DNA from: Bradymonadia bacterium
GTDB taxonomy: Bacteria > Myxococcota_A > Bradymonadia > UBA7976 > UBA1532
Length of the DNA: 24,598 bases
Assembly (NCBI GenBank): GCA_046290225.1
Contig: JBKAGE010000016.1
Coordinates: 1-24,598 of the forward strand
Direction: 5' to 3'
Shown: positions 2,239-23,184 of the stretch, piece by piece
Position numbering within the stretch: position 1 is the stretch's first letter
Layout: each line of letters starts with the position of its first letter
Position numbers and translations under genes: made by a program
The notes under the pieces: generated by a model
Databases searched by the model: none
What the model was told of the DNA's origin: nothing
The model's input: the letters and a program-made list of their open reading frames with translations, nothing else

Positions 2239-2328
2239 ACCCCGAGCAGGTCAGTGCACACATCTGTGATGACTCTGGCCGCGCGCCCCTGTACCTTCGC
2301 TTCGCCAACGAGACGCGAAGGGAACCCC

Positions 2329-4359
2329 ATGGAGATCACCGCCGATCTGCGCCGCACCATCGTCAACACCATCCGCATGCTCGCCGTCGATGCCGTGGAG
2401 CAAGCGAAGTCGGGCCACCCCGGCGCCCCCATGGGGCAGGCCGAGCTGGCCCATGTACTCTTTCACGAGTTCTTGCGCTTCGACCCCACTGATCCCGAGT
2501 GGCCCGCTCGGGACCGCTTCGTGCTCAGCTGCGGCCACGGCTCGATGTTGCAATATGCGCTGCTGCACCTCTGGGGCTACCCCCTCGAGCTCGATGATCT
2601 CAAGCAGTTCCGCCAGTGGGGCTCCCTGACCCCGGGTCACCCCGAGGCCGGTCACACCGCGGGTGTGGAGGTGACCACGGGCCCTCTCGGTCAAGGCGTG
2701 GCACAGTCGGTGGGCATGGCCCTCGCCGCCCGCATGATGCAGGCCCGCCTCGCTGCCGAAGGCGAGGACTTCGACCCGATGCCCCAGCGGGTCTTCACGA
2801 TCTGCTCCGACGGCGACTTGATGGAGGGCATCAGCAGCGAGGCCGCCTCTCTCGCGGGACACTGGCGACTCTCGAACTTGATCTGGCTCTACGATGACAA
2901 CGGCATCACCATCGACGGTGACACCGACATCGCCTTCTCGGAAGACGTGGGCCAGCGCTTCGAGGCCTTCGGCTGGCGGGTGCTGCGTGCCGATGGCCAC
3001 AACGCCGACGAGGTCCGCGCCGCTCTGGCCCGGGCCACCGATGCTGGCGCCCCCGATCAGCCGGTGCTGATCATTTGCAAGACCCACATCGGCTACGGCA
3101 GCCCCAACAAGGTCGACTCGTCGAAGGCCCACGGCTCCCCCCTCGGAGCCGACGAGATCAAGGCGACGAAAGAGGTCCTGGGCTGGCCCACCGAGCCCAC
3201 CTTCCTGGTGCCCGACGAGGTGAAGGCCTTCTTCACCGAGGCCCAGCAGGCCAAGACCGCCGATCGCAAAGCCTACGAGGCGGAGTACACCGCCTGGCGC
3301 AGCCGCCAGCCGGAGGCCGCCGCCCGCTTCGACGATCTCTGGGCCGCGAAGACCCCAGAAGACTTCGCCGAGCGTCTGCTGGCCTCTGTGGCAGGCAAAG
3401 AAGACGCCACCCGCAAGCTGAGCGCCGCGGTCATCGACGCCGCCCTCGAGGCGATGCCGGCCTTTGTGGGTGGCTCTGCCGATCTCACGGGGTCGAACGG
3501 CATCAACATGAAGTCCGAGGTGATGGTGGGCTACCCGGGCTCCAGCCGCCGCAACGAGATGAGCTTCGCCGGCCGCAAGATGCACTTCGGCATCCGCGAG
3601 CACGCCATGGGGGCCATCACCAACGGCATGTTGCTGCACGGGGGCCTGCGGCCCTTCAACGCCACCTTCCTGGTCTTCAGCGACTACCTGCGGCCCTCGA
3701 TCCGCCTTGCGGCGTTGAGCCGCCTGCCCAACGTCTTCGTGCTCAGCCACGACAGCGTGTTCCTCGGGGAAGACGGCCCCACGCACCAGCCCGTGGAGCA
3801 TCACTGGGCCCTGCGTACGATCCCTGACTTCCACTACTTCCGCCCTGCAGACGCTGTAGAGGTGGCCATGACCTGGTCTTGGGCCCTCGGCGAGGCAGAG
3901 CTGCCCATCGGCGTGTCCCTGACCCGTCAGAAGCTGCCGGCCATCGAGCGCCGCGCCGACTTCGACGCCAAAGAGGTCTGGCGCGGGGGCTACGTGGTGA
4001 CTGCCGCGGAGAACCCCGAAGTGGTGCTGGTGGGCACGGGCTCAGAGCTGCAGCTTTGCTGTGAAGCAGCGAAGGCGCTCACGGCCGATGGCCACCGCGT
4101 ACAGGTGGTGTCGATGCCCTCGTTCGATCTCTTCCGGGAGCAGGACGAGGCCTGGCAGCGCTCAGTGATCCCTGCAGGCGCCAAGGTGTGCACCATCGAG
4201 GCGGGCATCACGGACCCCTGGGCAGTGCTCACGGGCCTGAGCGGCCTGCGCATCGGCATCGATCGCTTCGGCGCTTCGGCCCCGATGGCGGTGATCGCTG
4301 AAGAGTTCGGGCTGACGACGGAGAAGGTGTTGGGGCGCATTCGAGAGTGGCTGGGCTGA
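2329..4359 (+). CDS. tkt: Transketolase
   Basis: SGHPGAPMG, RDRFVLSCGH, TTGPLGQG, DGDLMEG (TPP binding), FGIREHAM, GEDGPTHQP, GIDRFGASAP. ATG 2329 follows AAGGGA. Confidence 0.98.
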   Translation: MEITADLRRTIVNTIRMLAVDAVEQAKSGHPGAPMGQAELAHVLFHEFLRFDPTDPEWPARDRFVLSCGHGSMLQYALLHLWGYPLELDDLKQFRQWGSLTPGHPEAGHTAGVEVTTGPLGQGVAQSVGMALAARMMQARLAAEGEDFDPMPQRVFTICSDGDLMEGISSEAASLAGHWRLSNLIWLYDDNGITIDGDTDIAFSEDVGQRFEAFGWRVLRADGHNADEVRAALARATDAGAPDQPVLIICKTHIGYGSPNKVDSSKAHGSPLGADEIKATKEVLGWPTEPTFLVPDEVKAFFTEAQQAKTADRKAYEAEYTAWRSRQPEAAARFDDLWAAKTPEDFAERLLASVAGKEDATRKLSAAVIDAALEAMPAFVGGSADLTGSNGINMKSEVMVGYPGSSRRNEMSFAGRKMHFGIREHAMGAITNGMLLHGGLRPFNATFLVFSDYLRPSIRLAALSRLPNVFVLSHDSVFLGEDGPTHQPVEHHWALRTIPDFHYFRPADAVEVAMTWSWALGEAELPIGVSLTRQKLPAIERRADFDAKEVWRGGYVVTAAENPEVVLVGTGSELQLCCEAAKALTADGHRVQVVSMPSFDLFREQDEAWQRSVIPAGAKVCTIEAGITDPWAVLTGLSGLRIGIDRFGASAPMAVIAEEFGLTTEKVLGRIREWLG

Positions 4360-4370
4360 GGCGCGGACGA

Positions 4371-4796
4371 TCTGAGCGGACGGCCGCCCTTCGGGCCGCC
4401 TGTAGCAGACGGTCATCGCCTTACGGCGACAGCCTGTAGCGGACGCCTCGCCTTCGGCGAGAGCTGTAGCGGACGCTCATTTGCCTACGGCAAATTCCCT
4501 GTAGCTTTTTTGAAGATCACTCTGGGGGGGCGTGTGTGAATTCATCTACCGCAGACGCTGTTGGCCCCTGACGCACCAGTTCCGGCGTAAGCCCCAACCT
4601 GGGTTGAGAGGCCCACCAGACACACCATAAGTCTCTAAAAAAGCTACAGCACAGGCTGCCGAAGGCAGACTCGGCGTCCGCTACAGCTTTGCGCCAGCGC
4701 AGCTGGTTCAGGCGTCCGCTACAGACGCAGCGAAGCGAAAGCTTTTGCTGGGTCGTCCGCTACAGGCGGTGCCAAAGGCACGGCCGTCCGCTCAGA
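4371..4796. repeat. Nested inverted-repeat element 1 (REPIN/MITE-like branched hairpin)
   Basis: Arm pairs 4371-4386/4781-4796, 4396-4411/4754-4769, 4434-4448/4710-4724, 4462-4476/4674-4688 and 4499-4511/4637-4649. Built on CTGTAGCGGACG / CGTCCGCTACAG units separated by small hairpins. Confidence 0.9.
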
Positions 4797-4800
4797 CCGC

Positions 4801-5910
4801 TCACTCACACACATCCAACCACGGCGTAATCACCCCGCCGCTGCACTCAGGCGCAGTTTCAGCCCCACACGGCCACCAGCGCGGCCGGATCGCTCGGGGC
4901 ACCACGTACTCCTTCAGCTCCACGTCGACAATGCAGGTACAACCTGAGCACGTCGTGATGCCCTCCCGCACGCGCAACAGGCTGAAAATGCCATCTGTCT
5001 CGCACTCCAGGCGGCGGGTGCGCTGCGCTGGAGGCAGCTCTTCCACCTCAGGGGGCTCGATCTCGTCGAGGATCGCCACCTGACACAGCGTACGCTCCGC
5101 GCCGTCGGGCTCAGGCACTCCAGCGCAGGGGTTCGCACCCCCGGAGAGGGGCACCACTTCTGGGTCGAAGATGATGGTGCGATCCGTGAAGCCTCGGATG
5201 AAGGGGATCGAGCGTGTGCGGCAGGCCACCGCTTCCGTGAGGCCCGGGTTCGCTGCCAGCGTGAGCGCCACCGGCGGCGTAGGCTCCGGGGCCACGGCCA
5301 TCCGGGTCTCCGAGCCGTCGTCGGTCACGCGGAAGAAGCCGTTGTAGCGCGGGCCATATTGTTCATAGAACCGCTCGGTCACCTCGAGGCCCACCAGATC
5401 GAGCAGGGCGTCGAGATCAGGGGTATAGGCCAGGCCCGGGCCATTGCGGGCATCGACGGCGAGTACCCGATCGGCGCCGGGGGTGGGGTTGATCGTCGGC
5501 GGGCCGAAGCGGCCGTCTCCGTCGACGTCTTCATAGGCGATGATCCAGACACGGTGGGCCAGCGCCGCAGCCCGAATCGTCTCGTCCTCGATGAGGGTGA
5601 GGGCGTTGAGAGGCAGCAACAGGCTTGCCAATTCAGGGCTCAGAGGCTTCACCTGCAGCGACATCAGCGTGTCGCCCTCGGGCTCCAGCGTGATCGCCTC
5701 GTCGCTCACGATGTAGAGTCCCGTAATCAGACGCCAGGCCACCGCCACCCGCAGCGGCGCCTCTCGGGGCACTGTGTCGGGATCAGAGATCCTCACTGGC
5801 AGACTGATCGGATCAGAGAGCGTCTGAGTCTCCACCGTACAGCCCGCGAGGAGCGTGCTCCCGTGCACGAGGCCTGACAGCCAGCAGCGAAGGCGCATGT
5901 GACGACTCAC
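4801..5910 (-). CDS. Hypothetical lipoprotein with a Cys-rich C-terminus
   Basis: 369-aa ORF with lipobox LAGC, a DVDGDG Ca-binding-like motif and several C-terminal Cys. The GTG start overlaps the upstream stop (GTGA); alternative ATG at 5898. Confidence 0.8.
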   Translation of the reverse strand: MSRHMRLRCWLSGLVHGSTLLAGCTVETQTLSDPISLPVRISDPDTVPREAPLRVAVAWRLITGLYIVSDEAITLEPEGDTLMSLQVKPLSPELASLLLPLNALTLIEDETIRAAALAHRVWIIAYEDVDGDGRFGPPTINPTPGADRVLAVDARNGPGLAYTPDLDALLDLVGLEVTERFYEQYGPRYNGFFRVTDDGSETRMAVAPEPTPPVALTLAANPGLTEAVACRTRSIPFIRGFTDRTIIFDPEVVPLSGGANPCAGVPEPDGAERTLCQVAILDEIEPPEVEELPPAQRTRRLECETDGIFSLLRVREGITTCSGCTCIVDVELKEYVVPRAIRPRWWPCGAETAPECSGGVITPWLDVCE

Positions 5911-7304
5911 AGGTTCACCTCCACCTCGAAGATGAGGGCCGGATCATAAATGAAGCGGCGCTGCACCTGGAACGCCGCGTCGAAGATGAGCGAGTGCACC
6001 TGCTTGTTCGAGACGTGAATCCGGGCCAGGTGAGGCAGCCCGTACCAGAGTTGCCAGTTCAGCCCTGCCCGATAGTAGAAGTCGTGAAACACCCCTGGGA
6101 ACCGATCCCCCCGTGGCAAAGAGCTTACCCGGATCGGGCCGTCGGATCCTTGCTCTACGAGCCGCAGCCAGTATTCCCCCTGCGCCATGAGGGACCAGTG
6201 CCGGGCAAAGCGCCATCGCACCTCACCCATGGCTGTATACGAGCGCTGATCATAGTCGGGGCTGATGGACAAGAACTCGTACGGGTGCGTGACGTAGGTT
6301 TGCTCCCGCCAGGGCAGCTGAGGGCCCGTAGTCGTCTCACGGGGCGTACGTCGGGGGCCTGAGCCCGCACCGTAGTAACGAAATTGCTGACCCAGATGCA
6401 GATCGAGGCGACCCCCGGCGAGGGCGCGCTGCCGCCAGTCGAGGCGGAGCATCGCTGCCTGAGGGAACGCGTCGACGTCAGAGGTGGTGTTCGACACCTT
6501 CACCCCATACTCCGCTGCCACCCTGAAGGCCCCAAAGGGCAGATCGACGCTGGCCCCCACGAGCTGGCTGTTCTCCGTAGCGGCGCTCTGCAGCCAGGCC
6601 ATGTAGTGCAGCTTCACCCGACCATCGAGGGCGCCGAGGGTGAGCGAGTAGAGATCGTCATCGGGCCACATGATGCGCCCCGCCATGACCTGTGTGAGAG
6701 ACCAGTGACGCCACTTCAGGCCACCCGCGTTGCCTTCGAGGGGTAACTGCTCCACCCAGAGGCCGGCGCCGAGAGTCACCGTGTCGAGATCGAAAAGCAC
6801 AGCCTCGCCTTCGAGGGGATCACCATCGATCTGGGCGAGGGTGCCCGAAGCATGCAGGCCCAGGCCGCTGATCAAATCGCTCGAGAAGCGGTAGCCGTCG
6901 CTGGCGCTGGGATTGAACGTCACCAGATTCAGGTTCACCTCGAGGGCTTCGAAGGCCCGCAGCGCCAGAAACGTGTCGAGGATGAAGTACCCGTGAAAGT
7001 GCGGCAGCTCGCCACCAGGGGTGAGATTGAGTCGGAACCCCGTGAGGCCGTCGGCGGCCATGGTGAACCGCTCGGGGAGCGTCTGCGGGCTCAGGCGGTG
7101 GCTCTGGCTGGGCACGGTGAGCTGATCGTAGAGGCGTCGATTGAGTAGACGCTGCTCGAAGAGCGTCCAGCGATCGCGACCGTCGAGAAAGATGCTCGGC
7201 GCCAAATCGGCCGAGGCGCCACTCTGCTGGGCGTGCGCTCGACTGTGAGAGAGCACGGCGCAGGCGGACAAGAGCAACAGGAGAGACGCAGGCAGGCGAC
7301 GCAT
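5907..7304 (-). CDS. Hypothetical outer-membrane beta-barrel protein
   Basis: Likely start ATG 7304 (MRRLPASLLLLLSACAVLSHSRAHA signal peptide). Amphipathic aromatic-rich strands and C-terminal LIFEVEVNL. The upstream part of the 770-aa ORF overlaps plus-strand genes. Confidence 0.75.
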   Translation of the reverse strand: MRRLPASLLLLLSACAVLSHSRAHAQQSGASADLAPSIFLDGRDRWTLFEQRLLNRRLYDQLTVPSQSHRLSPQTLPERFTMAADGLTGFRLNLTPGGELPHFHGYFILDTFLALRAFEALEVNLNLVTFNPSASDGYRFSSDLISGLGLHASGTLAQIDGDPLEGEAVLFDLDTVTLGAGLWVEQLPLEGNAGGLKWRHWSLTQVMAGRIMWPDDDLYSLTLGALDGRVKLHYMAWLQSAATENSQLVGASVDLPFGAFRVAAEYGVKVSNTTSDVDAFPQAAMLRLDWRQRALAGGRLDLHLGQQFRYYGAGSGPRRTPRETTTGPQLPWREQTYVTHPYEFLSISPDYDQRSYTAMGEVRWRFARHWSLMAQGEYWLRLVEQGSDGPIRVSSLPRGDRFPGVFHDFYYRAGLNWQLWYGLPHLARIHVSNKQVHSLIFDAAFQVQRRFIYDPALIFEVEVNL

Positions 7305-7397
7305 GCTCTGGCTATAGCACAAGGGGCCGATCTCAGGCCCGACTTGAGGGCCGCGGTGACGCTGTGTTTTGCTTAAATTCAGAACTTCGGAGGATCT

Positions 7398-7970
7398 ATG
7401 CGCCCACCCTACATTGCCCATCTGCTTCGGGTCGGCCTCTTGATGCTGATCGCCTGCCCGACCTGGGCTCAACGCAAGATCATCAAGGTCACGGGCCCCG
7501 ATGGCAGGACGCGATACGTCACCGAGCCTGAGCCACCCGTGTTGGTGGGACCACCGGTTCAACCCTCCACGCCTGACGCCAAAGACCAGGCGCGCCCTCA
7601 GAAAGCCTCGTCGAAGCGCAGCACGACCAGCACTGCCGACACTCCCTTGTTTCCGGGCAACCCCGAGTTCGTCCCCGGCGTGGGGCTCACGAAGACCTCG
7701 AGGGCCGAGGGTGGCTCCGGTGACACAGGTGCAGCCGAGCCCCTGCCCACGCTCAGCCTCGCGGAACGCCGCGCCGAGGCCGAGGCGGCGTTGAAGCAGG
7801 CCATCGCCGATCAGGAGGCTGCAGAGAAGGCGTTCTCGGCAGCGGTGCACAAGGCTCGAGTGGTGCCCTTTGGCGCCCACTTCAAAGCCCGCACCGACGC
7901 TCAGGTCGCCCTCGAAGAGGCGAAAGCCAAAGTCACCGAGGCCCAAGCCGCCGTCGACGCGCTCAAGTGA
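7398..7970 (+). CDS. Secreted hypothetical protein with a DUF4124-like N-terminus and a C-terminal coiled coil
   Basis: GGAGGA RBS, signal peptide ending TWA, KIIKVTGPDGRTRYVTEP motif, Ala/Glu/Lys-rich helical tail. Confidence 0.7.
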   Translation: MRPPYIAHLLRVGLLMLIACPTWAQRKIIKVTGPDGRTRYVTEPEPPVLVGPPVQPSTPDAKDQARPQKASSKRSTTSTADTPLFPGNPEFVPGVGLTKTSRAEGGSGDTGAAEPLPTLSLAERRAEAEAALKQAIADQEAAEKAFSAAVHKARVVPFGAHFKARTDAQVALEEAKAKVTEAQAAVDALK

Positions 7971-7983
7971 TGCGCGCCCCTTG

Positions 7984-8712
7984 ATGTTGAGCCTTCTGCT
8001 GATCGGTGGGTTGCTGCACAGCCCCCCTGCCCTCGCCGAAGTCCCCAGTCGGGTAGACGTCGAGCCCCTCGCGGTCCCCGCTGTCGACGTACCCCTCACC
8101 TTCGTGACCGCTGTGGGCTGGTACGCGCTCTTTCGCCAACATGACGACTGGGCAGATCCCTCGTGCCCCTGTGATCGCACCGACGCACCTCGGTGGGATC
8201 GTATCGGCGTCGATGGCACCTGGCGTCAGGGAGAGACCATGGCCGACGCCACCCTCGGCGCCGCTCTGCTCGTAAGCCTCGGCGCCGCAGCCATGGGCGC
8301 AGATGACATGGACGACGTCTTTGAAGACGCTCTGCTCAGCACAGAAGCCATGATGATCGCCGGGCTGCTCACCCAAGGGGTCAAGACCGCCACCAGCCGC
8401 CCCTACCCCTACTTGCTGCGCCCAGGTGCTGATCCCGCTCGGGAGGCTGACGGGGTGAACTACGCCGCTTTCTGGTCGGGGCACACCGCCACCCCCATGG
8501 CCGCCGCCGTCGCCGCGGCGTGGCAGTTCCAGCGACGACGACCCCACGACCCGATGCGGTGGGTCTTCTGGGTGGTGGGCCCCGCCCTGGCGCTGTCATC
8601 AGGCGTGTTTCAGATCAGCGCCGGCAATCACTACCCCTCCGACGTGGTCGTGGGCGCCGCGGTGGGCGCCGGGGTCGGCCTCGCGGTGCCGTGGCTACAC
8701 GGAGAGTTCTAG
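7984..8712 (+). CDS. PAP2-family (type 2 phosphatidic acid phosphatase-like) membrane protein
   Basis: Motifs KTATSRPYP, FWSGH and AGNHYPSDV, several TM helices, and an N-terminal signal from ATG 7984. Confidence 0.88.
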   Translation: MLSLLLIGGLLHSPPALAEVPSRVDVEPLAVPAVDVPLTFVTAVGWYALFRQHDDWADPSCPCDRTDAPRWDRIGVDGTWRQGETMADATLGAALLVSLGAAAMGADDMDDVFEDALLSTEAMMIAGLLTQGVKTATSRPYPYLLRPGADPAREADGVNYAAFWSGHTATPMAAAVAAAWQFQRRRPHDPMRWVFWVVGPALALSSGVFQISAGNHYPSDVVVGAAVGAGVGLAVPWLHGEF

Positions 8713-8740
8713 GGCGTCGCTGCGCAGCGCAACGGAGCCG

Positions 8741-9304
8741 TCACCCAGCGATCACACGCTGAACGCTGGCCACCGCCCGCATTACAGAATCGTCGGACTC
8801 CACGGTGTGCATCTCGCTCAGCGGCACCCACCGAGCATCTTTGGCGTCCGAGCCCGCCTCGAAGTCCCACGTGGTGGCTTCGAACAACACCCGAGCGTCG
8901 AAGTGCTTGTGTGTCGGATCAGACTTTCGAGCAGGGATCTCATGTACATCGACGTCGAGCAGCCCGTCGCCGAGCAGCTTCACTTCCGTGAGGCCGGTCT
9001 CCTCGGCCACTTCACGTCGGGCGGCGGCGAAGATGTCGGCATCATCAGGCTCGAAGTGCCCCCCAGGTTGGAGCCAGCGGTGCAGCTTCCCGTGGAAGAT
9101 CAGCAACAGGGCCGAATGATCGGGCGAGAGCACGAAGGCGCTGGCGGTGAAGTGCCCGGGCTCGAAGTGATCGCGATGAAACGGATCACCCTCCACCTCG
9201 GCGAGGGCGAGCATATCCGTGCGATGCGTGCCTTCTGCAGTGTCGGCGGGGGCATGCTGCTTCAACAGCTCAGCGAGATGATTACGGCGGTGTAGATTGG
9301 TCAT
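8741..9304 (-). CDS. NUDIX hydrolase
   Basis: Nudix box PGGHFEPDDADIFAAARREVAEETG, plus GHFTASAFV, WLQ and HKHFD. Start ATG 9304. Confidence 0.93.
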   Translation of the reverse strand: MTNLHRRNHLAELLKQHAPADTAEGTHRTDMLALAEVEGDPFHRDHFEPGHFTASAFVLSPDHSALLLIFHGKLHRWLQPGGHFEPDDADIFAAARREVAEETGLTEVKLLGDGLLDVDVHEIPARKSDPTHKHFDARVLFEATTWDFEAGSDAKDARWVPLSEMHTVESDDSVMRAVASVQRVIAG

Positions 9305-9364
9305 AGGGGTCGTGTTACCTGCTCGACGTATAGATGCAAAGAGATTCGCATCGGGTAAGAGAGC

Positions 9365-9907
9365 ATGCAGATGACGCAACGTTTCTCCATCACGCGCCGC
9401 GCTGACTTTTCGCCGGACGACGAGGCCGAGCTCAAAGGGCTCTCGCAACAGGTCTACCCGCCCGAGGCCATGACGGACTGGCCAGGTCGCCACATCGAGT
9501 GGGCCAGGACCACCCACAGCATTCGCTGCTGGTCAGACGATGTACTGGTGGCCCACGCTGGCCTTCTGGTCCGCTCAGGTCGCATTGACGATCGCACCGT
9601 AACCCTCGGAGGCGTGGGTGGTGTGATGGTTCACCCCGGTCATCGTCGCCAGGGGCTCGCCACCGCCACCATGCATCGTGCACCCACGTGGTTTGCAGAG
9701 CAGCAGGTCGATTTCGCGGTGCTGGTCTGTGTACCTGAGCTGTTCACGCTCTATGGCAGGGCGGGCTGGCAGGTCTTCGAAGACACTCTGTGGGTGCAGC
9801 AGCCAGGAGGTCGTGTGCCGTTTACATTCAACCGGCCCATGACCTTGTCGGTGGGCCTCGAGGCGCCCATCACCGGCGCACTCGATCTATGCGGGCTTCC
9901 ATGGTGA
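9365..9907 (+). CDS. GNAT-family N-acetyltransferase (AAC(2')/Eis-like fold)
   Basis: Acetyl-CoA motif VGGVMVHPGHRRQGLAT, LYGRAGW, and C-terminal DLCGLPW. Confidence 0.88.
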   Translation: MQMTQRFSITRRADFSPDDEAELKGLSQQVYPPEAMTDWPGRHIEWARTTHSIRCWSDDVLVAHAGLLVRSGRIDDRTVTLGGVGGVMVHPGHRRQGLATATMHRAPTWFAEQQVDFAVLVCVPELFTLYGRAGWQVFEDTLWVQQPGGRVPFTFNRPMTLSVGLEAPITGALDLCGLPW

Positions 9908-9973
9908 ACTCACCGAGCACCAGGCGTCACCCGCTCTATTTTTTCGATATTCTTTTGAGACCTGCAGGCTGAT

Positions 9974-9992
9974 GTAGGGGTCGAACCCCTGC
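9974..9992. promoter_or_regulatory. Palindrome upstream of the LuxR gene; possible autoregulatory operator
   Basis: GTAGGGG-TCGAA-CCCCTGC lies just upstream of the AGGAG RBS of the gene at 10008. Confidence 0.35.
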
Positions 9993-10007
9993 TTCACAGG
10001 AGTTCGT

Positions 10008-10784
10008 ATGCTCTCATCGGAGATGTCGTCCTGGTCTCACCGGGCATTGCGCAAACACTTCCTCGACGCTCACGTCAATGACACCGAATCGGGCACCCTC
10101 GATGCCGTGGCACGCATGGTTTTGGAGATCGATCGGCCTGACCATGTGCTCCACGTCGGCCTGCGCACACTCTCTGCCCATCTCGGCGCCGGACGCGTCG
10201 ATGTAGGCTTCGGCACAGCGCAACAGCGCACCTTCTCCGCAGCGGCCGAGGTCTCTGTGAGCGACGACGTTCCGAAAATGGTGGGCCGGGCGTTGCCGAA
10301 CCGTCATGAGGTGTTGCAGCGGGTGTGGCACAGCGCTCAGCCGGTGGCCTACGACGACGTGGTGAACAACCCCATGGTGGCCTCGCTCAAAGAGGCCTTC
10401 CTCGAGTGTGCGGCCCACGCGATGCTCGCCCAGAGACTCTCGAACGATGCAGGCAGCTTTGGTGTGATCTGCATCGACGACGTCGAGTACGGCCGTGTCT
10501 GGCGAGACTGTGATCGAGCCTATGTCTATGACTTCTGCACCACCTTCTTTGCGCCGCTGATCACCATCAGCCGGCAGATCGCCGAGCCCGACGACATCGT
10601 CAAGCCATCGCCGTCAGAGCTCGACGCCATCCGCCTCGCCGCCCAGGGCCTGAGCTACAAAGCCATCGCCGCCACGCTGAACAAGTCGATCCGCACCATC
10701 GAAGCCCAGCTCCGCAGCGCCCGCCACAAAACCAACACAGGCAACCAGACCGAGCTGGTCCGCGTGTGCGAGCCCTGGCTGTAG
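10008..10784 (+). CDS. GAF-domain LuxR-family transcriptional regulator
   Basis: N-terminal GAF-like region (PVAYDDV...MLAQRL...FGVICID) and C-terminal LuxR HTH (SPSELDAIRLAAQGLSYKAIAATLNKSIRTIEAQLRSARHK). AGGAG RBS. Confidence 0.9.
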   Translation: MLSSEMSSWSHRALRKHFLDAHVNDTESGTLDAVARMVLEIDRPDHVLHVGLRTLSAHLGAGRVDVGFGTAQQRTFSAAAEVSVSDDVPKMVGRALPNRHEVLQRVWHSAQPVAYDDVVNNPMVASLKEAFLECAAHAMLAQRLSNDAGSFGVICIDDVEYGRVWRDCDRAYVYDFCTTFFAPLITISRQIAEPDDIVKPSPSELDAIRLAAQGLSYKAIAATLNKSIRTIEAQLRSARHKTNTGNQTELVRVCEPWL

Positions 10785-10788
10785 ACAC

Positions 10789-11046
10789 GTGAAATACATG
10801 GTGATCGAGACCTTCAAGGCAGGGTGCATGCCCAAGGTGTATGCGCGATATGCCGAGCGTGGGCGCATGCTCCCCGAGGGGCTGGTGTACATCGACTCCT
10901 GGCTCACAGCAGATCAGCGTCAGTGCTTTCAGCTGATGGAGACCGCAGACGCGTCCCTCTTCGAGCCATGGATCGCGCAGTGGAGTGATCTGGTGAACTT
11001 CGAGGTCATCGCCGTAGAAGCCTCACCTACAAAACGGGATCAGTGA
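10789..11046 (+). CDS. Small DUF3303-like protein
   Basis: YMVIETF...YARYAERGRMLPEGLVYIDSW...CFQLMET...WSDLVNFEVI matches my recollection of DUF3303. Starts 4 nt after the LuxR stop. Confidence 0.8.
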   Translation: MKYMVIETFKAGCMPKVYARYAERGRMLPEGLVYIDSWLTADQRQCFQLMETADASLFEPWIAQWSDLVNFEVIAVEASPTKRDQ

Positions 11047-11059
11047 GGCAGACTCACCC

Positions 11060-11545
11060 TCAAGCGGGGAGCAGCTTCTCGATCTCGGCTTTGAGCTTCG
11101 CCGGGGCGGTCTTGCTGGCGAAGCGATCGATGACGTTGCCCTCAGCATCGACGAGGAACTTGGTGAAGTTCCACTTGATGCCCTTGGAGCCCAGCACGCC
11201 CTTGGCCTCACCCTTGAGGTAGTTGTAGAGGGGGTGGGCATCCTTGCCGTTGACGTCGATCTTGGCGTGCATGGGGAAGCTCACCCCATAGTTGATCTGA
11301 CAGAACTCGCTGATCTCGTCATTGCTGCCAGGATCTTGATGGCCAAACTGGTTGCAGGGAAAGCCCAAGACCGCCAGGCCGCGCTCCCCGTACTCTTTGT
11401 GCAGCGCCTCCAGGCCCTTGAACTGAGGCGTGAAGCCACATTTGCTGGCGGTGTTGACGATGAGCATCACCTTGCCCTGGTACTCGCCGAGGCTCTTCTG
11501 CTCGCCGCTGATGGTCTCCACATCGAAGTTGTAGATCGTGCTCAT
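11060..11545 (-). CDS. Glutathione peroxidase family protein (Cys-type, BtuE/Gpx-like)
   Basis: [36 protein letters not shown] 11545 overlaps the ohrR stop (ATGA). Confidence 0.97.
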
Positions 11546-12006
11546 GGGTTCTCCGTGTCGCCCGAGGTCTCGCCCCGGAGCATGCAGGTGAGGGTCTTGA
11601 TTTGCTCTCGCAAGCCCACCAGACCTTCGAGGTCCAGCGGATCGGTCATCTTGCACAGCACCGCGCCTTGTACTTCGCCGGCACGTGCACGCAACGCTTG
11701 CCCTTGGGTGGTCAGCCGAATCCGGATACGGCGCTCATCTTCAGGGTCTTTGACCCTGCGCAGCAGCCTCTGGGCTTCGAGGCGCCTCACGAGGGGGGTG
11801 AGGGTGCCGCTGTCGAGCATGAGCCTGCCGCCGAGATCTTTGAGGCTGATGTCATCGGCCTCCCACAACACCAGCATCACGAGGTATTGCGGATACGTGA
11901 GCCCCAACGCATCGAGGCCGGGCCGGTAGGCCTGGGTCATGGCCCTGCTCGCTGCGTACAACGCAAAACAGAGCTGCTGGTCGAGGTGGAGCGGATCACT
12001 GGCCAT
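11542..12006 (-). CDS. ohrR: OhrR-type MarR-family peroxide-sensing repressor
   Basis: [10 protein letters not shown] (sensing Cys), [29 protein letters not shown]. Alternative starts at 12027 and 12039. Confidence 0.9.
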
Positions 12007-12037
12007 GTCGTTATCCGTGCGCTGCATAGCCGTATTC

Positions 12038-12063
12038 ATTGTGCACAATTGAATTGTGCGCAA
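12038..12063. promoter_or_regulatory. OhrR operator
   Basis: Perfect GCACAATT-G-AATTGTGC at 12043-12059, with overlapping palindromes ATTGTGCACAAT and TTGTGCGCAA. Matches the known ACAATT-N-AATTGT OhrR box and lies directly upstream of ohrR. Confidence 0.85.
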
Positions 12064-12179
12064 CCATTTCAGTTCACCCCACGCACAAAATCCCCCGTAT
12101 TGGGCTGGCGACTCACCGAGCCATCATGGAAGAATGATGGCCGCGTACACACAGGATCTCACCGATTCAGGAGCATGTT

Positions 12180-12692
12180 GTGGGCAAACCCTTAACGCCA
12201 CCCCCACGGACACCGGCGCTGATTCGCCGCGCCGCCCTGGGCGTCGCCCTCGCAGCCAGCGCGCTGGGCTGTGATGACGACTCTGGCCTCGTAGAAGATG
12301 ATCCACTCGATGGTGGCAGCCCCGATGTGATCATCGCCCCCATGCCGCCGCCTCAGCCCGACATGAACGTCGACTCGCCGATGCCTCCGCCGGAGCCAGA
12401 CGCCATGATCGCGCCGATGCCACCCCCTCAAGATGACATGGGTATAGCTGAGCCGGACGCCATCCCCCCCATGCCAGTGCCCCAGGAAGACATGGGCCTG
12501 GCCGATATGGACATCATCGCGCCGATGCCCCCACCGGAGCCCGACATGGAGGTGGACGCCCCCATGCCGCCGCCCGATCCCGACATGGAGCTTCCCGAAG
12601 ACATGGGCCTCCCCGACGCAGAGCCCCTGCCCGACTTCGAGGTCCTGCCCCCGATGCCCCCACCGATGCCCCCGCCCCCCGAAGAGCCTTGA
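12180..12692 (+). CDS. Acidic Pro/Met/Asp-rich lipoprotein with repeated PMPPP motifs
   Basis: AGGAG at 12169-12173, then GTG. Signal IRRAALGVALAASALG-C. Seven PMPPP plus one PMPVP, separated by PDM/EDMG linkers. Confidence 0.85.
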   Translation: MGKPLTPPPRTPALIRRAALGVALAASALGCDDDSGLVEDDPLDGGSPDVIIAPMPPPQPDMNVDSPMPPPEPDAMIAPMPPPQDDMGIAEPDAIPPMPVPQEDMGLADMDIIAPMPPPEPDMEVDAPMPPPDPDMELPEDMGLPDAEPLPDFEVLPPMPPPMPPPPEEP

Positions 12693-13663
12693 TGAGCGAC
12701 TGGGTGCTCGCCCCAGAGTGGGGCCACTGGATCGACGAGAACCTCTCTCAACGTGCCGAAGCCTCCGATGTCATCGCAGGGCTGGTGCAATCCGGGGTGC
12801 CCGAGGTCCTCGCTGCTGCCGAGGTGTACCGTCGCCTCACCGCCCAGATGACTCGTCGAGCGCGCCAGGCGGAGATGATCCTCGGCCTGCAACAACGCAT
12901 GTGGCGCACAGCGCCTGGTGGTGCCATCGAGCGGCGCTCTGGCCTGAGCGCCGAGGCGTTCTTTGCCCACCACTACGCCGCCAACCGGCCGGTGATCCTC
13001 GAAGATTTCACCGAGGGCTGGCCCGCCCTGGAGCGCTGGTCACCGAGCTTCTTCAAGTCGCACTTCGGCGCAGTGGAGGTAGCGGTCACCCTCGACCGGG
13101 AGTCGGATCCGGATTACGACATGCGCCACCGGGATCACACCCGACCGATGGCCATGGCCGATTACGTCGACGCGCTGCTCGCCGCCGGCGAGAGCAACGA
13201 CCTCTACATGGTGGCGAACAACCGCAACGCTGATCGCCCTGAGCTGGCGCCAATCTTCGACGACGTACGCCTCAATCACGGCATCTTGCGCCCGGATCGC
13301 CTGAAGGGCTGTGTGGCTCTGTGGCTGGGCCCCGCAGGCACGGTGACGCCCCTGCACCACGACACCTGCAACATCATGTTCTGCCAGATTCGAGGGCGTA
13401 AGCGCTTCAAGCTCTATCCACCGAGTGAGCGCCGACTGCTCCACGGCGCCCGGAGCATGTACGGCGCCATCGACCCGGAAGCACCGGGATCGACAGATCA
13501 GCTGGTGGAGTTCGAGGTGACGGTGGGCCCAGGCGACACGCTGTTCATCCCCGTGGGCTGGTGGCACCACGTCCGGGCCCTGGACGTAAGCGTGAGCATC
13601 GCCTTCAGCAACTTCGCCCGGCCCAATCTGTTCGATGATTATCGCCCAGGTGAGGTGCGTTGA
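12692..13663 (+). CDS. JmjC / cupin-like (Cupin_8) Fe(II)-2-oxoglutarate oxygenase
   Basis: NRPVIL...WPALERWS, LWLGPAGTVTPLHHD (HxD), QIRGRKRF, PGDTLFIPVGWWHHV (distal His). ATG overlaps the upstream TGA (TGATG). Confidence 0.93.
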   Translation: MSDWVLAPEWGHWIDENLSQRAEASDVIAGLVQSGVPEVLAAAEVYRRLTAQMTRRARQAEMILGLQQRMWRTAPGGAIERRSGLSAEAFFAHHYAANRPVILEDFTEGWPALERWSPSFFKSHFGAVEVAVTLDRESDPDYDMRHRDHTRPMAMADYVDALLAAGESNDLYMVANNRNADRPELAPIFDDVRLNHGILRPDRLKGCVALWLGPAGTVTPLHHDTCNIMFCQIRGRKRFKLYPPSERRLLHGARSMYGAIDPEAPGSTDQLVEFEVTVGPGDTLFIPVGWWHHVRALDVSVSIAFSNFARPNLFDDYRPGEVR

Positions 13664-13811
13664 GACGGACTCAGCCCTTGTCTTGAGCGGGCAGCTCGGC
13701 AAGAGACTGGGCCTTGCTCATACGAAATCGGTAGATCTGCCAGTCTTGCGCCATGAACAGGTGCTCTCTCGAGAAGGTCTCCTCTGCACGTACACTGCCT
13801 GGAGCCCGTCT

Positions 13812-14345
13812 ATGCGTCTCACCCTTACCCTCGTCACTCTGCCTCTGCTCGGGGCCTGCTCTGCCCTCCCTGCTGACGGTCCGCTCGACGGATCGGCGTG
13901 CCGACACGTGAACGCCCAGCCCCTGAGCCCCGACGACAGCTGGTCGGCGATCCAACGCCGGGCCGGCTACTTCACCGAGATCCCCAAGGTGCAGCTCGGC
14001 AACACCTTCGTGCCGGTGACGGGCATCTGCGTCGACGGCCCCGACTTACGCACGATCAAGCAGGTGGAGCGCTGCACGGCCTATCGCAGCCGTGGTGACG
14101 ACGATGAGTGTGTGGCCACGGAAAACGCGCACCTGCGTACATCGATCGCCTATACCCGTGAGGTCTGCACTCGCTGGCGTGGTGGGGAAAACGACGAGTG
14201 CGCCCGCACCGAGGCCCGATCGGGCAACCACCCCACGGTGTACGAGATCCCGGTGCACGCAACTCGGAATGCTGGAGAGGGCGAAGAAGAAGCTGGTCGA
14301 CTGTGCTTCGTGAAGACACATACGCTCCCCGCTTGCGACACCTGA
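13812..14345 (+). CDS. Cys-rich hypothetical lipoprotein with an internal duplication
   Basis: GGAG at 13801, ATG 13812, lipobox LGAC. Repeats CTAYRSRGDDDECVATE and CTRWRGGENDECARTE. Confidence 0.8.
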   Translation: MRLTLTLVTLPLLGACSALPADGPLDGSACRHVNAQPLSPDDSWSAIQRRAGYFTEIPKVQLGNTFVPVTGICVDGPDLRTIKQVERCTAYRSRGDDDECVATENAHLRTSIAYTREVCTRWRGGENDECARTEARSGNHPTVYEIPVHATRNAGEGEEEAGRLCFVKTHTLPACDT

Positions 14346-14500
14346 CCCCCACAGCACTCGCCAGCCCTTCAAAGAGCCCCACTGGTGAAGCAATAGGTAG
14401 AAACATGCACAAATTGCAGGCCCCACGGCTCAGCAATTGATCCACTCCCACTCAACATCTAGATTCTTCCCCATAGATCCGGGGCATATTGGGGTGCAGA

Positions 14501-15429
14501 GTGAAGCCAAAGAAATCAGCCAGCTACCTACAATATATCGTCCTCGCACTCTCCATATTACGGGGTGCGACACCAGCCCAACTCGCCAAAGACAGCCTGA
14601 AGCTGATGATGCGGGCATCGCCGATGCGTACATAGATAAGTCGGACGCAATGTTCAGACGCTCCTCCAGTGACTTTGGTGAGTTGCAGGCCAAGGTCTAT
14701 GGTGAGCTGACACCACCCGCCGAGTGCGACCAGGCAGAGGGCATGATCGCCATCGAGAGACCAGATGGCTCATGCTTTCTGATTGACTCACGTCCAGTAT
14801 CGAGAAGTGACTATTACTCATACTGGTCTAAGGAAGATGTACAACAGGCCCTGATTGCAGAAGGGCCATGTCGTGGGCAGCCAGCAAACGGTGCACCACG
14901 AAGGGTTGAAGATGTAGGTCCAGGCCTATGTCGACTATCAGACGAATTTGGACAACCAGCAGGCATGAACTGGCCTCCTCTCGAAGAGGAGCAGATTAAA
15001 CCCATGGTCTGTGTGAACTGGTGCGACGCGTATGTCTATTGCACGTATTTTGGCAAATCACTTTGCCAAAACCATCAGTATGAGAAATTCGAGGATATAC
15101 CACTCAACACATCTGGAGCGCCTATTCCGATTGGGCTCAACAGTTCAGATGACGATTGGTATATCGCCTGTTCGAATCATGGGATGCACAGGTACTCATA
15201 CCCTTCAGATGAACGTATCAGAGAGTGTCATCAACCAAATTCCCCTTGTGAAGGACCTTTCGTCGGTAGCCTCTTCACAACAACGGAACGTGAGCACAGA
15301 GGGCCTCAACTCGCCGTTGTGGGGGCTCAAACAGGGTGCACCGTTGAATCGATCCATCGGCACACCCCTTCAAGCTCACAGACAGGTTTTAACGCCACCT
15401 ATGGGTTTCGCTGTTGCAAATATGAATGA
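14501..15429 (+). pseudogene. FGE-sulfatase/SUMF1-like (C-lectin-fold) lipoprotein, copy 1, with a 1-nt frameshift in the signal peptide
   Basis: PMVCVNWCDAY..C...GKSLC...WYIAC...YGFRCC. GTG 14501 gives MKPKKSASYLQYIVLALSIL, and TGC-DTS continues in the -1 frame from 14560. Paralog of 22264-23184. The frameshift may be a sequencing error. Confidence 0.7.
14808..15350 (+). repeat. Direct repeat of 22557-23099 (near-identical core of the two FGE-like genes)
   Basis: Ungapped alignment at offset 7749; about 24 mismatches in 543 nt by manual count. Confidence 0.95.
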
Positions 15430-15459
15430 GCATGGCTCAAGCCTCCATCGATATTGAAT

Positions 15460-16025
15460 TGACCAAGCGTCGTATTGGGCAGTGACGGAGGTGGTGGCTG
15501 GGCCTTTGTAGGCAGTCGTCGCTGCGCTCCGCCTGCGTAGGCGCCCGGCCTTCGGCACATCTTCGATGCGCCTCGTCGGTCGCGTACACGTTCAGGCACC
15601 TGCTGACGCAGGCACCTTCCCGGGTAGGCAGGGTCGCTCAATGCTGACGCATTGATTGCTCGCTCCCCTGCGTAAAGAGTTTCTTCTGTATCTTTCTGCT
15701 CATGCCCGCCGGGATTCGACCTACCGCGAACGTACAAGCTTCCGAACATCAAACGCTCGGCGTAAGCCCCAACAACATTGGAAGCACCCTGAAGCCACAC
15801 CAGAACTGACTTTTTACGCAGGGGAGCGAGCAAGAAGGGCGAAGCCCTGAGCGCCCCTGCCTACCCGGAGGCCTGCTCGCCTCAGCGAGCCCGCCGACAT
15901 GTACGCAGCTCCAAGGCGAGCCGAAGGCCGGCCGACAAAGCTGCCTACGCAGGCGAAGCGAAGCGACGACTGCCTACAAAGGCCCAGCCACCACCTCCGT
16001 CACTGCCCAATATGATGTTCGGTCA
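15460..16025. repeat. Nested inverted-repeat element 2 (REPIN/MITE-like branched hairpin)
   Basis: Perfect 51-bp arms 15473-15523/15962-16012. Inner pairs 15530-15542/15943-15955, 15545-15556/15920-15931, 15620-15633/15855-15868 and 15656-15676/15813-15833. Confidence 0.92.
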
Positions 16026-16115
16026 GCGCTCTATTGCCTGTGAGAGCACCCACCAGCCCAATCGCGAGCCCTTCCCTCTTGCGACCCGTACCGACTCCAG
16101 GCATCACCCTCCGGT

Positions 16116-17360
16116 ATGGACACTTCTTCTCAACGGCCGCCCGGCTACACCCCTTTCGACCCGCGCCTGGAGGCGCAGCGGCGCTTCTTCCAGCAAATGC
16201 GCGACGCTCGGCCCAGAGCCACATGGCTGCTGGCGGCGCTCGTCGTGCTGGTGACAGGGGCCTCGATGCTCTGGGGCGGCTTCGACGAGCGCTCCGCCCG
16301 CTTCAACCTCGTGCTGGAGTTGATGGGCTCAGTGCGAAAAGACGCCATCCTCGAGGGTGAGTATTGGCGGCTACTCTCGGGCACTCTGCTCCACGGTGGG
16401 GTGGTACACGTGCTCATGAACCTCTATGGGCTCGTGATGCTGGGTAAGTTCGTCGAGCCCATCCTCGGCCGCGGCCGCATGCTGATGCTGTACGTGCTCT
16501 CTGCCCTCGTGGGCGCCCTGGGATCTGCGTTCCTGGGCGAAGGCGCCAGCGTCGGCGCCTCTGGGGCGATCTGGGGCTTCATGGGGGCCATCGGTGGGCT
16601 CGTGGTGAGACCTGGGGGCCTGATCCCTGGGGGCATCGCCAAAGCCATCGGACGTCGGCTGATGCCTCTGCTCATCCTCAACGTAGCCATCTCGTTCCTG
16701 CCCCGGGTCGACTTCTATGCGCACTTCCTCGGTGGCGCCGCTGGCTTCGCCCTCACCTTCACCGGGTTGCTCCGCCCTCGACCGGGCGAGCCTCCGGACT
16801 CCCTCGCCTCCTGGGGGCTCGGTGCCCTGGCGCTGCTGACGCTTGCGGGCTCTGGGGCGATGGCCACGGTTCAGGGCGAGCCCTGGCAGCTCGGTCAGCC
16901 TGTCTTCGTGAAGGAGACCCGTATCGCCGACACCGGGCTCACGCTTCCCCTGCCCGGCGACCTGCCTGCCCCACAGCGTGAGGGCACTGACAGCGCGCTC
17001 ACGCTGAAGTTCGGCGAGCTTCAATCAACACCTGATCGCACGCACGCGGTGACCGTGGGCGTAGACACACTCACCGCTCACCCTGCCCAGCGTCGGCAGA
17101 TCTTCGAGCGGGACATTCAGCACCTTGAGCAGACCCTCAAGCAGCGCAGCCGCCTGCTAGGTGTTCCGCGGCGCGACGACGGCACGGGGGCGCCCTTCTG
17201 GACCGTGGAGCGCGATCTGGGCGGCGCAAAGAGCCAGATGTTCGTCAGCTTGCTCGAGGATCGAATCGTCGTGGTAGAAGTAGTCTGGCTCAACGACTTT
17301 CGGGCAGCGGTGGTGCCCACGCTCTCCGCGCTCACCGATCGCCTGGCACCCCATAGGTGA
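16116..17360 (+). CDS. Rhomboid-family intramembrane serine protease with a C-terminal soluble domain
   Basis: EYWRLL...LHGGVVHVLMN, catalytic GASG, and AHFLG (His). Confidence 0.93.
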   Translation: MDTSSQRPPGYTPFDPRLEAQRRFFQQMRDARPRATWLLAALVVLVTGASMLWGGFDERSARFNLVLELMGSVRKDAILEGEYWRLLSGTLLHGGVVHVLMNLYGLVMLGKFVEPILGRGRMLMLYVLSALVGALGSAFLGEGASVGASGAIWGFMGAIGGLVVRPGGLIPGGIAKAIGRRLMPLLILNVAISFLPRVDFYAHFLGGAAGFALTFTGLLRPRPGEPPDSLASWGLGALALLTLAGSGAMATVQGEPWQLGQPVFVKETRIADTGLTLPLPGDLPAPQREGTDSALTLKFGELQSTPDRTHAVTVGVDTLTAHPAQRRQIFERDIQHLEQTLKQRSRLLGVPRRDDGTGAPFWTVERDLGGAKSQMFVSLLEDRIVVVEVVWLNDFRAAVVPTLSALTDRLAPHR

Positions 17361-21956: not shown

Positions 21957-22263
21957 GGGCTCTGGCGGCTACATCATCAGGCCCGAGCCTGTACGCCCTG
22001 CCGTGGCGAAGCAGCCACTCACCCAGAACAGCTCCTCTGTAGCAATCCGCTGTCAGCAAAAGCACCTAAAAACATTAACATTTCAAAGTTTCTTTTTTCA
22101 CCCATTGATTCCTAGAGACTTCAGAGCCTATCGTCAAAAGCGTGGAATTTGGGTTTATCTGGGGAGCAGGGTGGACAAACGCACATCGACAAGTGGATGC
22201 CAGCTTTCTGTTGAGATGACACTGCGATTCACAACTCAGCTTGAAGTGAATCAGCGTACTCGT

Positions 22264-23184
22264 ATGCCTCGAAATGGCATCGTGTTTAGTATCATCGCAT
22301 TCTCACTTGTAAGTTGCGACTCGGGCTCAGGCCGTCACAGACAGTCTGAGGTCACCGATGCGAGCGTAGCCGACGCCCACTTAGATAACTTGGATGCGAT
22401 GTTCAGGCCTTCTCCAAGAGACTTTGGTGGTCTGAGTGTCAAAGTCTATGGTGAATTGACACCAACTGCAGAATGCGATGAGGTTGAAGGTATGATCGCC
22501 ATCGAGAGGCCGGATGGCACATGCTTCCTCATCGACTCACGCCCTGTCTCAAGAAATGACTATTACTCATACTGGTCTAAGGAAGATGTACAACAGGCCC
22601 TAATTTCAGAAGGGCCATGTCGTGGGCAGCCAGCAAACGGTGCACCACGAAGGGTTGAAGATGTAGGGCCAGGCCCATGTCGACTATCAGACGAATTTGG
22701 ACAACCAGCAGGCATGAACTGGCCTCCTCTCGAAGAGGAGCAGATTAAACCCATGGTATGTGTGAACTGGTGCGATGCGTATGCCTATTGCTCATATCTT
22801 GGCAAATCACTTTGCCAAAACCGTCAGTATGAGCAATTCGAGGATATACCACTCGACACATCTGGAGCGCCCATTCCGAATGGGCTCAACAGTTCGGAGG
22901 ACGATTGGTATATCGCCTGTTCGAATCATGGGATGCACAGGTATCCATATCCTTCAGATGAACGTATCAGAGAGTGTCATCAACCAAATTACCCATGTGA
23001 AGGGCCTTTCGTCGGTAGCCTCTTCACAACAACGGAACGTGAGCACAGAGGGCCTCAACTCGCCGTTGTGGGGGTTCAAACAGGGTGCACCGTTGAATCA
23101 GTACACCAACATAACATCTTAAGTTCACAAACAGGGTTTAACTATAATTATGGGTTTCGGTGTTGTAAATACAATCAACCTTAA
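22264..23184 (+). CDS. FGE-sulfatase/SUMF1-like (C-lectin-fold) lipoprotein, copy 2
   Basis: MPRNGIVFSIIAFSLVS-C lipoprotein signal, PMVCVNWCDAYAYC, GKSLC, YGFRCC. Lower GC than the flanks. The exact start is uncertain. Confidence 0.8.
   Translation: MPRNGIVFSIIAFSLVSCDSGSGRHRQSEVTDASVADAHLDNLDAMFRPSPRDFGGLSVKVYGELTPTAECDEVEGMIAIERPDGTCFLIDSRPVSRNDYYSYWSKEDVQQALISEGPCRGQPANGAPRRVEDVGPGPCRLSDEFGQPAGMNWPPLEEEQIKPMVCVNWCDAYAYCSYLGKSLCQNRQYEQFEDIPLDTSGAPIPNGLNSSEDDWYIACSNHGMHRYPYPSDERIRECHQPNYPCEGPFVGSLFTTTEREHRGPQLAVVGVQTGCTVESVHQHNILSSQTGFNYNYGFRCCKYNQP

Follow-up and report, generated by a model that had tools for sequence, protein, structure and literature searches.

The window analysed here, a stretch of 24,598 nucleotides from a Bradymonadia bacterium (contig JBKAGE010000016.1 of assembly GCA_046290225.1), contains two long fold-back repeats, element A (4370..4796, 427 nt) and element B (15460..16025, 566 nt), which represent two unrelated families of long-hairpin repeats that carry a homologous non-coding centre of ~130 nt, termed the core. 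These core-bearing repeats appear to be restricted to the lineage. As a tentative reading, which we rate at somewhat under an even chance, A and B are orphan, non-autonomous fold-back repeats of single-stranded DNA (ssDNA) that resemble bacterial interspersed mosaic elements (BIMEs) or REPINs, the hairpin-forming pairs of repetitive extragenic palindromes (REPs), with the core as a conserved linker like that of BIME-1.

One core on two unrelated types of arm

Element A is situated between two convergent stop codons. Its left arm (4370..4511) is a series of TGAGC/TGTAGCGGACG units with a side hairpin, mostly TNC-looped, after each, and ends with TGTAGC and a T-run, with GTAG at positions 4402, 4436, 4466 and 4501; the core forms the loop (4512..4636), and the right arm (4637..4796) is built from inverted units whose side hairpins carry GNA loops. 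The left arm of element B (15460..15679) begins with an outer inverted segment that matches the element's own right end, continues with GTAG-led units (15508, 15537 and 15624) and ends with CCTGCGTAAAGAG, followed by the core as the loop (15680..15809) and the right arm (15810..16025); arms, cores and motifs are given on the plus strand. Both regions fold far better than shuffled sequences (z -11.8 for A and -19.6 for B, with 0/100 shuffles as good in either case). A preliminary description of the window had held the two types of arm to be unalignable, and indeed the matches between them are tiny, none exceeding 21 nt.

The same description had recognised two short motifs at identical spacing in both elements, and their positions were verified: motif 1, CTACCGC (GTAG on the minus strand), lies at 4546..4552 and 15721..15727, and motif 2, an identical 16-mer that includes a GGC-GTAA-GCC mini-hairpin (4584-4593 in A), at 4583..4598 and 15758..15773, with 30 nt between the motifs and the same orientation in both copies. 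Across the two families the spacer is less rigid than in this pair, with 30 nt in 21/24 copies of A and 29 nt in the other three, as against 29 nt in 32/38 copies of B and 30 nt in six. Likewise, the 16-mer is exact at only nine loci of the genome, since motif 2 varies in its loop (GTAA, GAAA or GCAA) and its tail (CAAC, CTAC, CAAT or CAGC), so that both motifs are exact in no more than 3/24 A and 4/38 B copies. A third proposed similarity, CACCAGA at 4614 and 15798, is present at both positions but not positionally homologous, being off register in the family alignment; the homologous block is CACACCA at 4621-4627, corresponding to 15796-15802. The extent of the common core had in turn been set too short: the consensus cores of A and B are 61% identical over 99 columns, and, with a threshold as loose as E up to 10, a profile of the A core matches 38/38 B cores, the best of them at 4e-7.

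The core is not confined to the window. The bipartite pattern has 60 matches in the 8.58-Mb genome (83 contigs, designated by C-numbers below; 99.4% complete), compared with none in a 2-Mb Markov control, and profile searches yielded 75 core loci, of which 30 have A arms, 44 have B arms and one is an A/B hybrid. Arms thus adjoin 75/75 profile matches, and armless copies were not found. Conversely, arm pairs enclosing loops of 90-170 nt carry both motifs in 23/25 A and 36/36 B elements (59/61 in total); the loops with both motifs span 127-137 nt, and the polarity of the core is fixed. A and B recombine through the common core: in the natural hybrid (C82:48337-48803) an A left arm and a B right arm are joined through the core, and a copy with A arms (C35:507815) has the same B-like left junction as the hybrid. 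A search for arm copies that enclose an open reading frame (ORF) revealed one pair of B arms (C77:106988-107860) with a gene encoding a four-helix-bundle protein in place of the core. The proposal of one homologous core presented on exchangeable arms is borne out by the hybrid, by the arms at all 75 core loci and by this gene-bearing pair. Twenty collapsed A minis were also found, compared with none for control words. As a separate observation, a ~150-nt miniature element with a TA duplication, which we take to be related to IS630, has entered cores on two independent occasions, one of B (C34:360650-361333) and one of A (C78:372536-373099).

The arms are modular. An A arm has four slots in a set order, every one made up of TGTAGCGGACG and a side hairpin, and the modules of a given slot come from a small pool specific to it, mostly common to the left and right arms; modules are reshuffled both from copy to copy and from left to right arms. 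GTAG is invariant in A and B and faces inward on both arms, with two to four units per arm in A and three per arm in most B copies. The loops of the side hairpins are strand-specific: GNA triloops occupy 52/70 right-arm hairpins in A and 56/62 in B, and TNC loops 57/85 left-arm hairpins in A and 56/68 in B, each against a background of 7-8%; the strand that reads outward is the one with GNA triloops. Such triloops have particular stability in DNA and constitute a DNA-type signature. Inside a side hairpin linkage rises to an r2 of 1.0, but between arm and core blocks it is 0.02-0.10, where the null is 0.03-0.04, so that modules are combined almost freely in the copies; recurrent mutation could contribute to the low linkage. 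A single recombination breakpoint was sought in the core and not found, as linkage falls between all modules. Cores are on average 80% identical within A and 84% within B, one pair being identical, and for whole arms the copy's own opposite arm is the best partner in only 2/24 A and 2/37 B copies, while for the outer ends of B the own other end is the best match in 11/36.

Genomic location, related strains and distribution

The copies lie at the 3' ends of genes. According to gene contexts from a crude gene caller of our own, 32/61 copies are located between convergent genes, compared with 32/361 background gaps, and next to tandem genes the core reads with transcription in 11 cases and against it in 14, so that its orientation is independent of transcription. 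Element A follows directly upon the host gene for transketolase (2254..4359, plus strand) and faces a convergent ORF of no known family (4801..5910, minus strand), whereas B is flanked by an upstream gene with a formylglycine-generating enzyme (FGE)-sulfatase domain (14437..15429, plus strand) and a downstream host gene for a rhomboid protein (16116..17360, plus strand).

A sequencing run containing related strains (X1) suggests that one of them is without element A. In one X1 contig 4369 is followed by a single T and then by 4797, so that GCGGACGTCCGC separates the two stop codons; the join unites GCGGACG (4363..4369) and CCGCTCA (4797..4803), the latter overlapping the stop codon of the minus-strand gene, into a 12-bp palindrome that is itself arm-like and shows no target duplication. 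This empty allele is suggestive only, since the short side of the join measures ~19 letters and is below the bar of 31 letters, and the join appears compatible with insertion into a palindromic seed and with collapse of element A alike. Another X1 contig, with a short side of 150 letters, lacks 14346-16095; as the FGE-domain gene is missing along with element B, this deletion is not a precise empty site. Read depth over B is low in X1, which was not taken as a sign of absence. Two variants of the A core occur in X1, 4594 C>G, by which the hairpin of motif 2 gains a fourth pair, and 4597 A>G.

Long inverted termini, non-coding content and dispersal are features of MITEs (miniature transposable elements with inverted repeats) such as Correia/NEMIS, ERIC and RUP, and A and B might accordingly be classical MITEs moved by a DDE transposase acting on the outer termini; an IS4-like ORF and the TA-duplicating miniature element are present in the genome. 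However, B has no constant terminus, no target duplication was seen by inspection of 62 end pairs or at the apparent empty site, no matching insertion sequence (IS) was found, and the inner trunk of the arms, not the tip, is the conserved part. Such an origin is therefore considered highly improbable.

Beyond this genome, the exact bipartite pattern was found in 0/40 relatives, and element B in 0/30 order-level genomes by BLAST. A sequence-only core model, which scored only 25-33 candidates per genome, gave single weak matches (E 7e-4 to 0.05) in 14/112 genomes of the class, none with inverted flanks, and no match at E up to 0.002 in 149 genomes of the phylum. A broad scan of contigs with an overly short pattern returned at least 89 loci, at least four of them with short, chance-like inverted matches, and does not demonstrate absence; no arm-like flanks occurred among the matches listed. 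Metagenomes contained two armless core matches, viral contigs contained none, and plasmids and phages gave no meaningful matches, in collections that may leave out this genome and its closest relatives. A literature search found no description of these elements or of four-helix-bundle genes linked to dispersed inverted repeats, and none of six terms tried occurs in PMC4679880.

Conservation and nature of the core

The suggestion that the core is conserved for a function has evidence on both sides. Core divergence within a family is lower at positions where A and B agree (0.10 versus 0.17, p 5e-4), and divergence per position correlates between A and B (rho 0.27, p 0.006), so that the conserved positions of the two families coincide. 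By contrast, the conservation of motifs 1 and 2 does not clearly exceed that of the best windows obtained after shuffling the columns (p 0.056 and 0.29). Conversion between the families could alone be enough to keep short blocks of the core alike, and the chances that the core is an active cis-acting DNA site or a passively inherited linker are about even.

The core is non-coding, as all six frames carry stops across the copies, and for a 144-aa ORF over B none of 11 candidates qualified as a homologue at E up to 0.1. The A core, with p 0.005 before any correction for six tests, shows variability with a period of three, which was not seen in the B core (p 0.79). No tRNA, Rfam family or sigma-70-like promoter was found.

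A catalytic or structured RNA, which the preliminary description had listed among the possible functions, is not supported by these data. On the plus strand the consensus cores fold weakly (-9 and -8 kcal/mol), no helix beyond the 3-bp hairpin is common to A and B, and the core has no orientation with respect to transcription. G-T and A-C mismatches are balanced (15 versus 16 and 37 versus 33), that is, without a wobble-pair strand bias, and substitution rates of 0.09-0.17 are similar for A, C, G and T, which indicates that no adenine-directed mutagenesis has taken place. A ribozyme, retron or diversity-generating retroelement (DGR) has no support as an identity of the core in view of the missing Rfam match, the weak fold, the lack of an adenine bias and the lack of homology to retron RNA. 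More generally, the core could be a ribozyme or a recognition RNA for reverse transcriptases (RTs), copied by retron-type RTs or diversified in the manner of DGRs. The only RTs of the genome, two retron-like genes on C79 that lie away from the window and have a collapsed B remnant between them, the GNAA loop and the FGE-sulfatase genes of the window point in this direction, but there is no core match at the putative retron RNA on C79, and together with the weak fold, the even rates and the missing promoter this makes an RNA route very unlikely. The C79 locus itself (177728-181442) consists of the two RT genes in convergent orientation, a long inverted repeat upstream of the first and SWIM-like neighbours, as judged by eye.

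A further explanation dispenses with a dedicated enzyme: the repeats would have been spread and shuffled by recombination and repair functions of the host, namely ectopic gene conversion targeting short palindromic seeds at the ends of genes and slippage between hairpins, and the core would be a passive leftover, possibly from old coding DNA, whose likeness in A and B would be due to conversion. The near-free shuffling of modules, the ragged ends, the matches of B ends to their own partners, the arm-like sequence of the apparent empty allele, the period-3 variability of the A core and the lack of significance for the motifs all agree with it, as does the failure to find a RAYT gene, which encodes a tyrosine transposase associated with REPs, or an IS91 (for which the control was uninformative), IS110, DUF559 or GxxExxY gene. 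Nevertheless, ~75 dispersed copies with constant core length and polarity require a copying bias, the core is retained in nearly all arm pairs and its conserved positions coincide between the families, while an origin from coding DNA is at odds with the B core and with the stops in all frames. We regard spread by host functions alone as improbable.

BIME-like spread and four-helix-bundle cassettes

The elements are best compared with REP-type repeats. A and B are repeated, extragenic and palindromic, and occur as inverted pairs forming a hairpin, as do REPs, BIMEs and REPINs; they were not filed as members of these classes because no RAYT gene was found. The description of an undescribed system was too strong, as the BIMEs of Escherichia coli already combine most of the features: BIME-1 has a conserved long linker, chimeric BIMEs exist, BIMEs are kept where TnpA-REP has been lost, TnpA-REP recombines BIME modules in vitro, and gene sequestration has been proposed (PMC3333891). 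A and B share with BIMEs and the REPtron the inverted GTAG-led units, the conserved long linker, chimeras between families and module variation, and would likewise have been kept after loss of the transposase gene and have captured a neighbouring gene, as proposed for BIMEs (PMC3333891). They differ in that the arms are ordered multi-slot arrays of 140-220 nt pairing into one long trunk, that one linker serves two unrelated arm families, and that neither TnpA-REP nor an exact consensus for integration host factor (IHF), whose site is frequent in the BIME-1 linker, was found. With the REPINs of Pseudomonas they have in common that the whole inverted unit is the repeated entity, that it is extragenic and that deletion remnants are common, whereas REPINs are defined as REP doublets, ~70-110 bp apart with a linked RAYT (PMC3116915; 10.1101/2021.07.10.451892), and A and B are branched, have an asymmetric core and are without a RAYT. 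The GTAG tag, the head-to-head orientation, the short loops and the sites after gene ends are as in GTAG REP families (PMC3733652). GTAG-dependent cleavage of ssDNA at C|T, with strand transfer, is described for the RAYT system (PMC8266576).

In the BIME/REPIN-like reading, A and B would have been copied as ssDNA hairpins by an HUH nuclease similar to RAYT/TnpA-REP, which may nick near GTAG-led hairpins and rejoin strands between copies, so that modules spread and are shuffled. The core would be the counterpart of the BIME-1 linker, derived from one ancestral cassette that gained two types of arm, and the minus-strand GTAG together with the GNAA hairpin is a candidate nick or binding site. The gene for the enzyme may have been lost or not assembled, and the four-helix-bundle gene would have been captured as cargo by the B copy that holds it. 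We infer the enzyme and its cleavage chemistry from these resemblances. Core identities of 80-84% and the diversity of the copies fit with decay after loss of a RAYT, as expected for REPINs in its absence (10.1101/2021.07.10.451892). In keeping with this reading, RAYT-like genes match in 27/40 relatives at E up to 0.01, with only one above the curated cut-off.

Several findings weigh against this reading. No gene for a RAYT or another Y1 transposase was found in the assembly with Pfam, NCBIfam, tblastn or a custom profile. The flanks of RAYT-like loci in relatives show A/B-type arms in 0/22 cases and no core (inverted flanks in 4/22 are other sequences). The side hairpins of A begin ~7 nt after GTAG, compared with 0-2 nt in canonical REPs (PMC3733652; the families listed there were not compared), while the units of B, as read from the sequence, are able to pair from the base right after GTAG. 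Moreover, the elements, at 430-570 nt, are several times as long as described REPINs, the IHF consensus is exact in 0/61 cores and present with one mismatch in 10/61, and the sole gene inside B arms encodes a four-helix-bundle protein, whose only other gene in the genome is also enclosed by giant inverted arms.

Other mobile-element enzymes were sought as well. No IS110, DUF559, GxxExxY, PDDEXK_3, NF047646 or Y1_Tnp gene was found in the assembly, and IS91/Y2_Tnp had no match either, in a search whose positive control also matched nowhere and which is thus uninformative; one GIY-YIG match lies within a 625-aa frame. There are four TnpB genes (C35:142954, C64:11727, C35:40084 and C45:37121), and no Y1 TnpA was found in the assembly. 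A miniature derivative of IS200/IS605 (palindrome-associated transposable element, PATE) was rejected, as none of the four TnpB loci is related to the core (best core E 1.1).

The four-helix-bundle genes give rise to a competing explanation, in which A and B are gene-less derivatives of a cassette with a PF05635/TIGR02436 gene (the 23S-rRNA-IVS-protein family). Such a gene-in-stem unit would spread by a route that needs the four-helix-bundle protein, and the core would be a replacement loop accepted by the same machinery. Both PF05635 genes of the genome are located in giant inverted arms, one of them frameshifted, in B arms, and the other intact, in the arms of a further family (family C; ~48 inverted-arm loci, mostly with their own fixed core). 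Inverted flanks accompany 18/22 scorable homologous loci in the phylum (7/29 were truncated and dropped), the gene-bearing B copy on C77 keeps ~9 nt of the right junction of the core, and the cassette L193 of a relative (G112:C115) has arrays of a CTGTAG word with inward GTAG, as in the A trunk. Yet the GTAG word occurs in only 1/31 cassettes of relatives and triloop hairpins on both arms in 0/31; typical cassette arms, in relatives and in family C, are tandem words of 6-7 nt, as opposed to the hairpin arrays of A and B; the gene-bearing loop on C77 has no core homology, and no gene-bearing A copy was found. In yet another family (family D), arms stand on either side of ordinary host genes and of tRNA-like arrays, so that arms can end up around arbitrary DNA and cargo capture is plausible. 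The four-helix-bundle protein is not known to have catalytic activity, which also counts against the cassette. A cassette origin is the main alternative, if rather doubtful.

ORF-bearing intervening sequences (IVSs) of 23S rRNA are known, with excision by RNase III for the IVS of Coxiella (PMC4990558). The likeness to IVSs and four-helix-bundle cassettes, namely a long stem whose loop holds a PF05635 gene, applies to the C77 (B arms) and C72 (family C arms) copies only; unlike IVSs, A and B are intergenic between protein genes, there is no Rfam rRNA match in the window, the arms are hairpin arrays and the window copies are geneless.

Elements of these explanations can be joined in a transposase-free fold-back system, in which the arms would accept either a four-helix-bundle gene or the 130-nt core, the latter being a genuine signal for copying, either an origin or a nick site. 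Arms of unrelated families would plug onto this one signal and shuffle hairpins combinatorially, with the four-helix-bundle protein or some enzyme not yet recognised as the driving agent. We judge this combination unlikely; if true, it would assign a function to an unexplained protein family and reveal a new route of repeat spread, whereas, with a core that is only an inherited linker, A and B would be a BIME-like family peculiar to this lineage and only moderately interesting. For the open question of the origin, spread and diversification of REP-type repeats in vivo, the genome offers ~75 complete copies near linkage equilibrium, one hybrid, a nested series of collapsed copies, a probable empty allele and a copy with a gene in place of the core. 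RAYT-free spread of repeats and the action of the four-helix-bundle protein on hairpin arms are testable here.

The further repeat families and loci have features of their own. Family C is exemplified by C72:82266-83361, where (GGGCAC)n arrays and optional 102-nt units surround a variable core of ~170 nt that is unrelated to the A/B core; the intact four-helix-bundle gene at C72 matches PDB 2gsc, and in another copy (C50:55559-57127) an IS4-like ORF is inserted in the core. Family D comprises 78 loci, mostly single arms of 170-290 nt, and its inverted pairs (e.g., C36:153142-154952, C37:77586-78326, C20:93-1431 and C43:30-1346) enclose an SMR-like gene cluster, tRNA-like arrays and a cyoE-like gene, all named by eye; some pairs are at contig starts and possibly reflect assembly effects. 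At locus L120 of a relative (G030:C290), a weak PF05635 match lies directly upstream of an RT-like ORF, again identified by eye and possibly part of a DGR. Within the window, proline-rich coding repeats at 12321-12671 lie inside an ORF (12180-12692) that matches no Pfam or NCBIfam family, and a short single-copy stretch with a small ORF-like region (10784-11041) is replaced by 25 other letters in a related-strain contig. Finally, the FGE-sulfatase-domain gene upstream of B has a paralogue at 21856-23184, the two being 78% identical over 300 nt.

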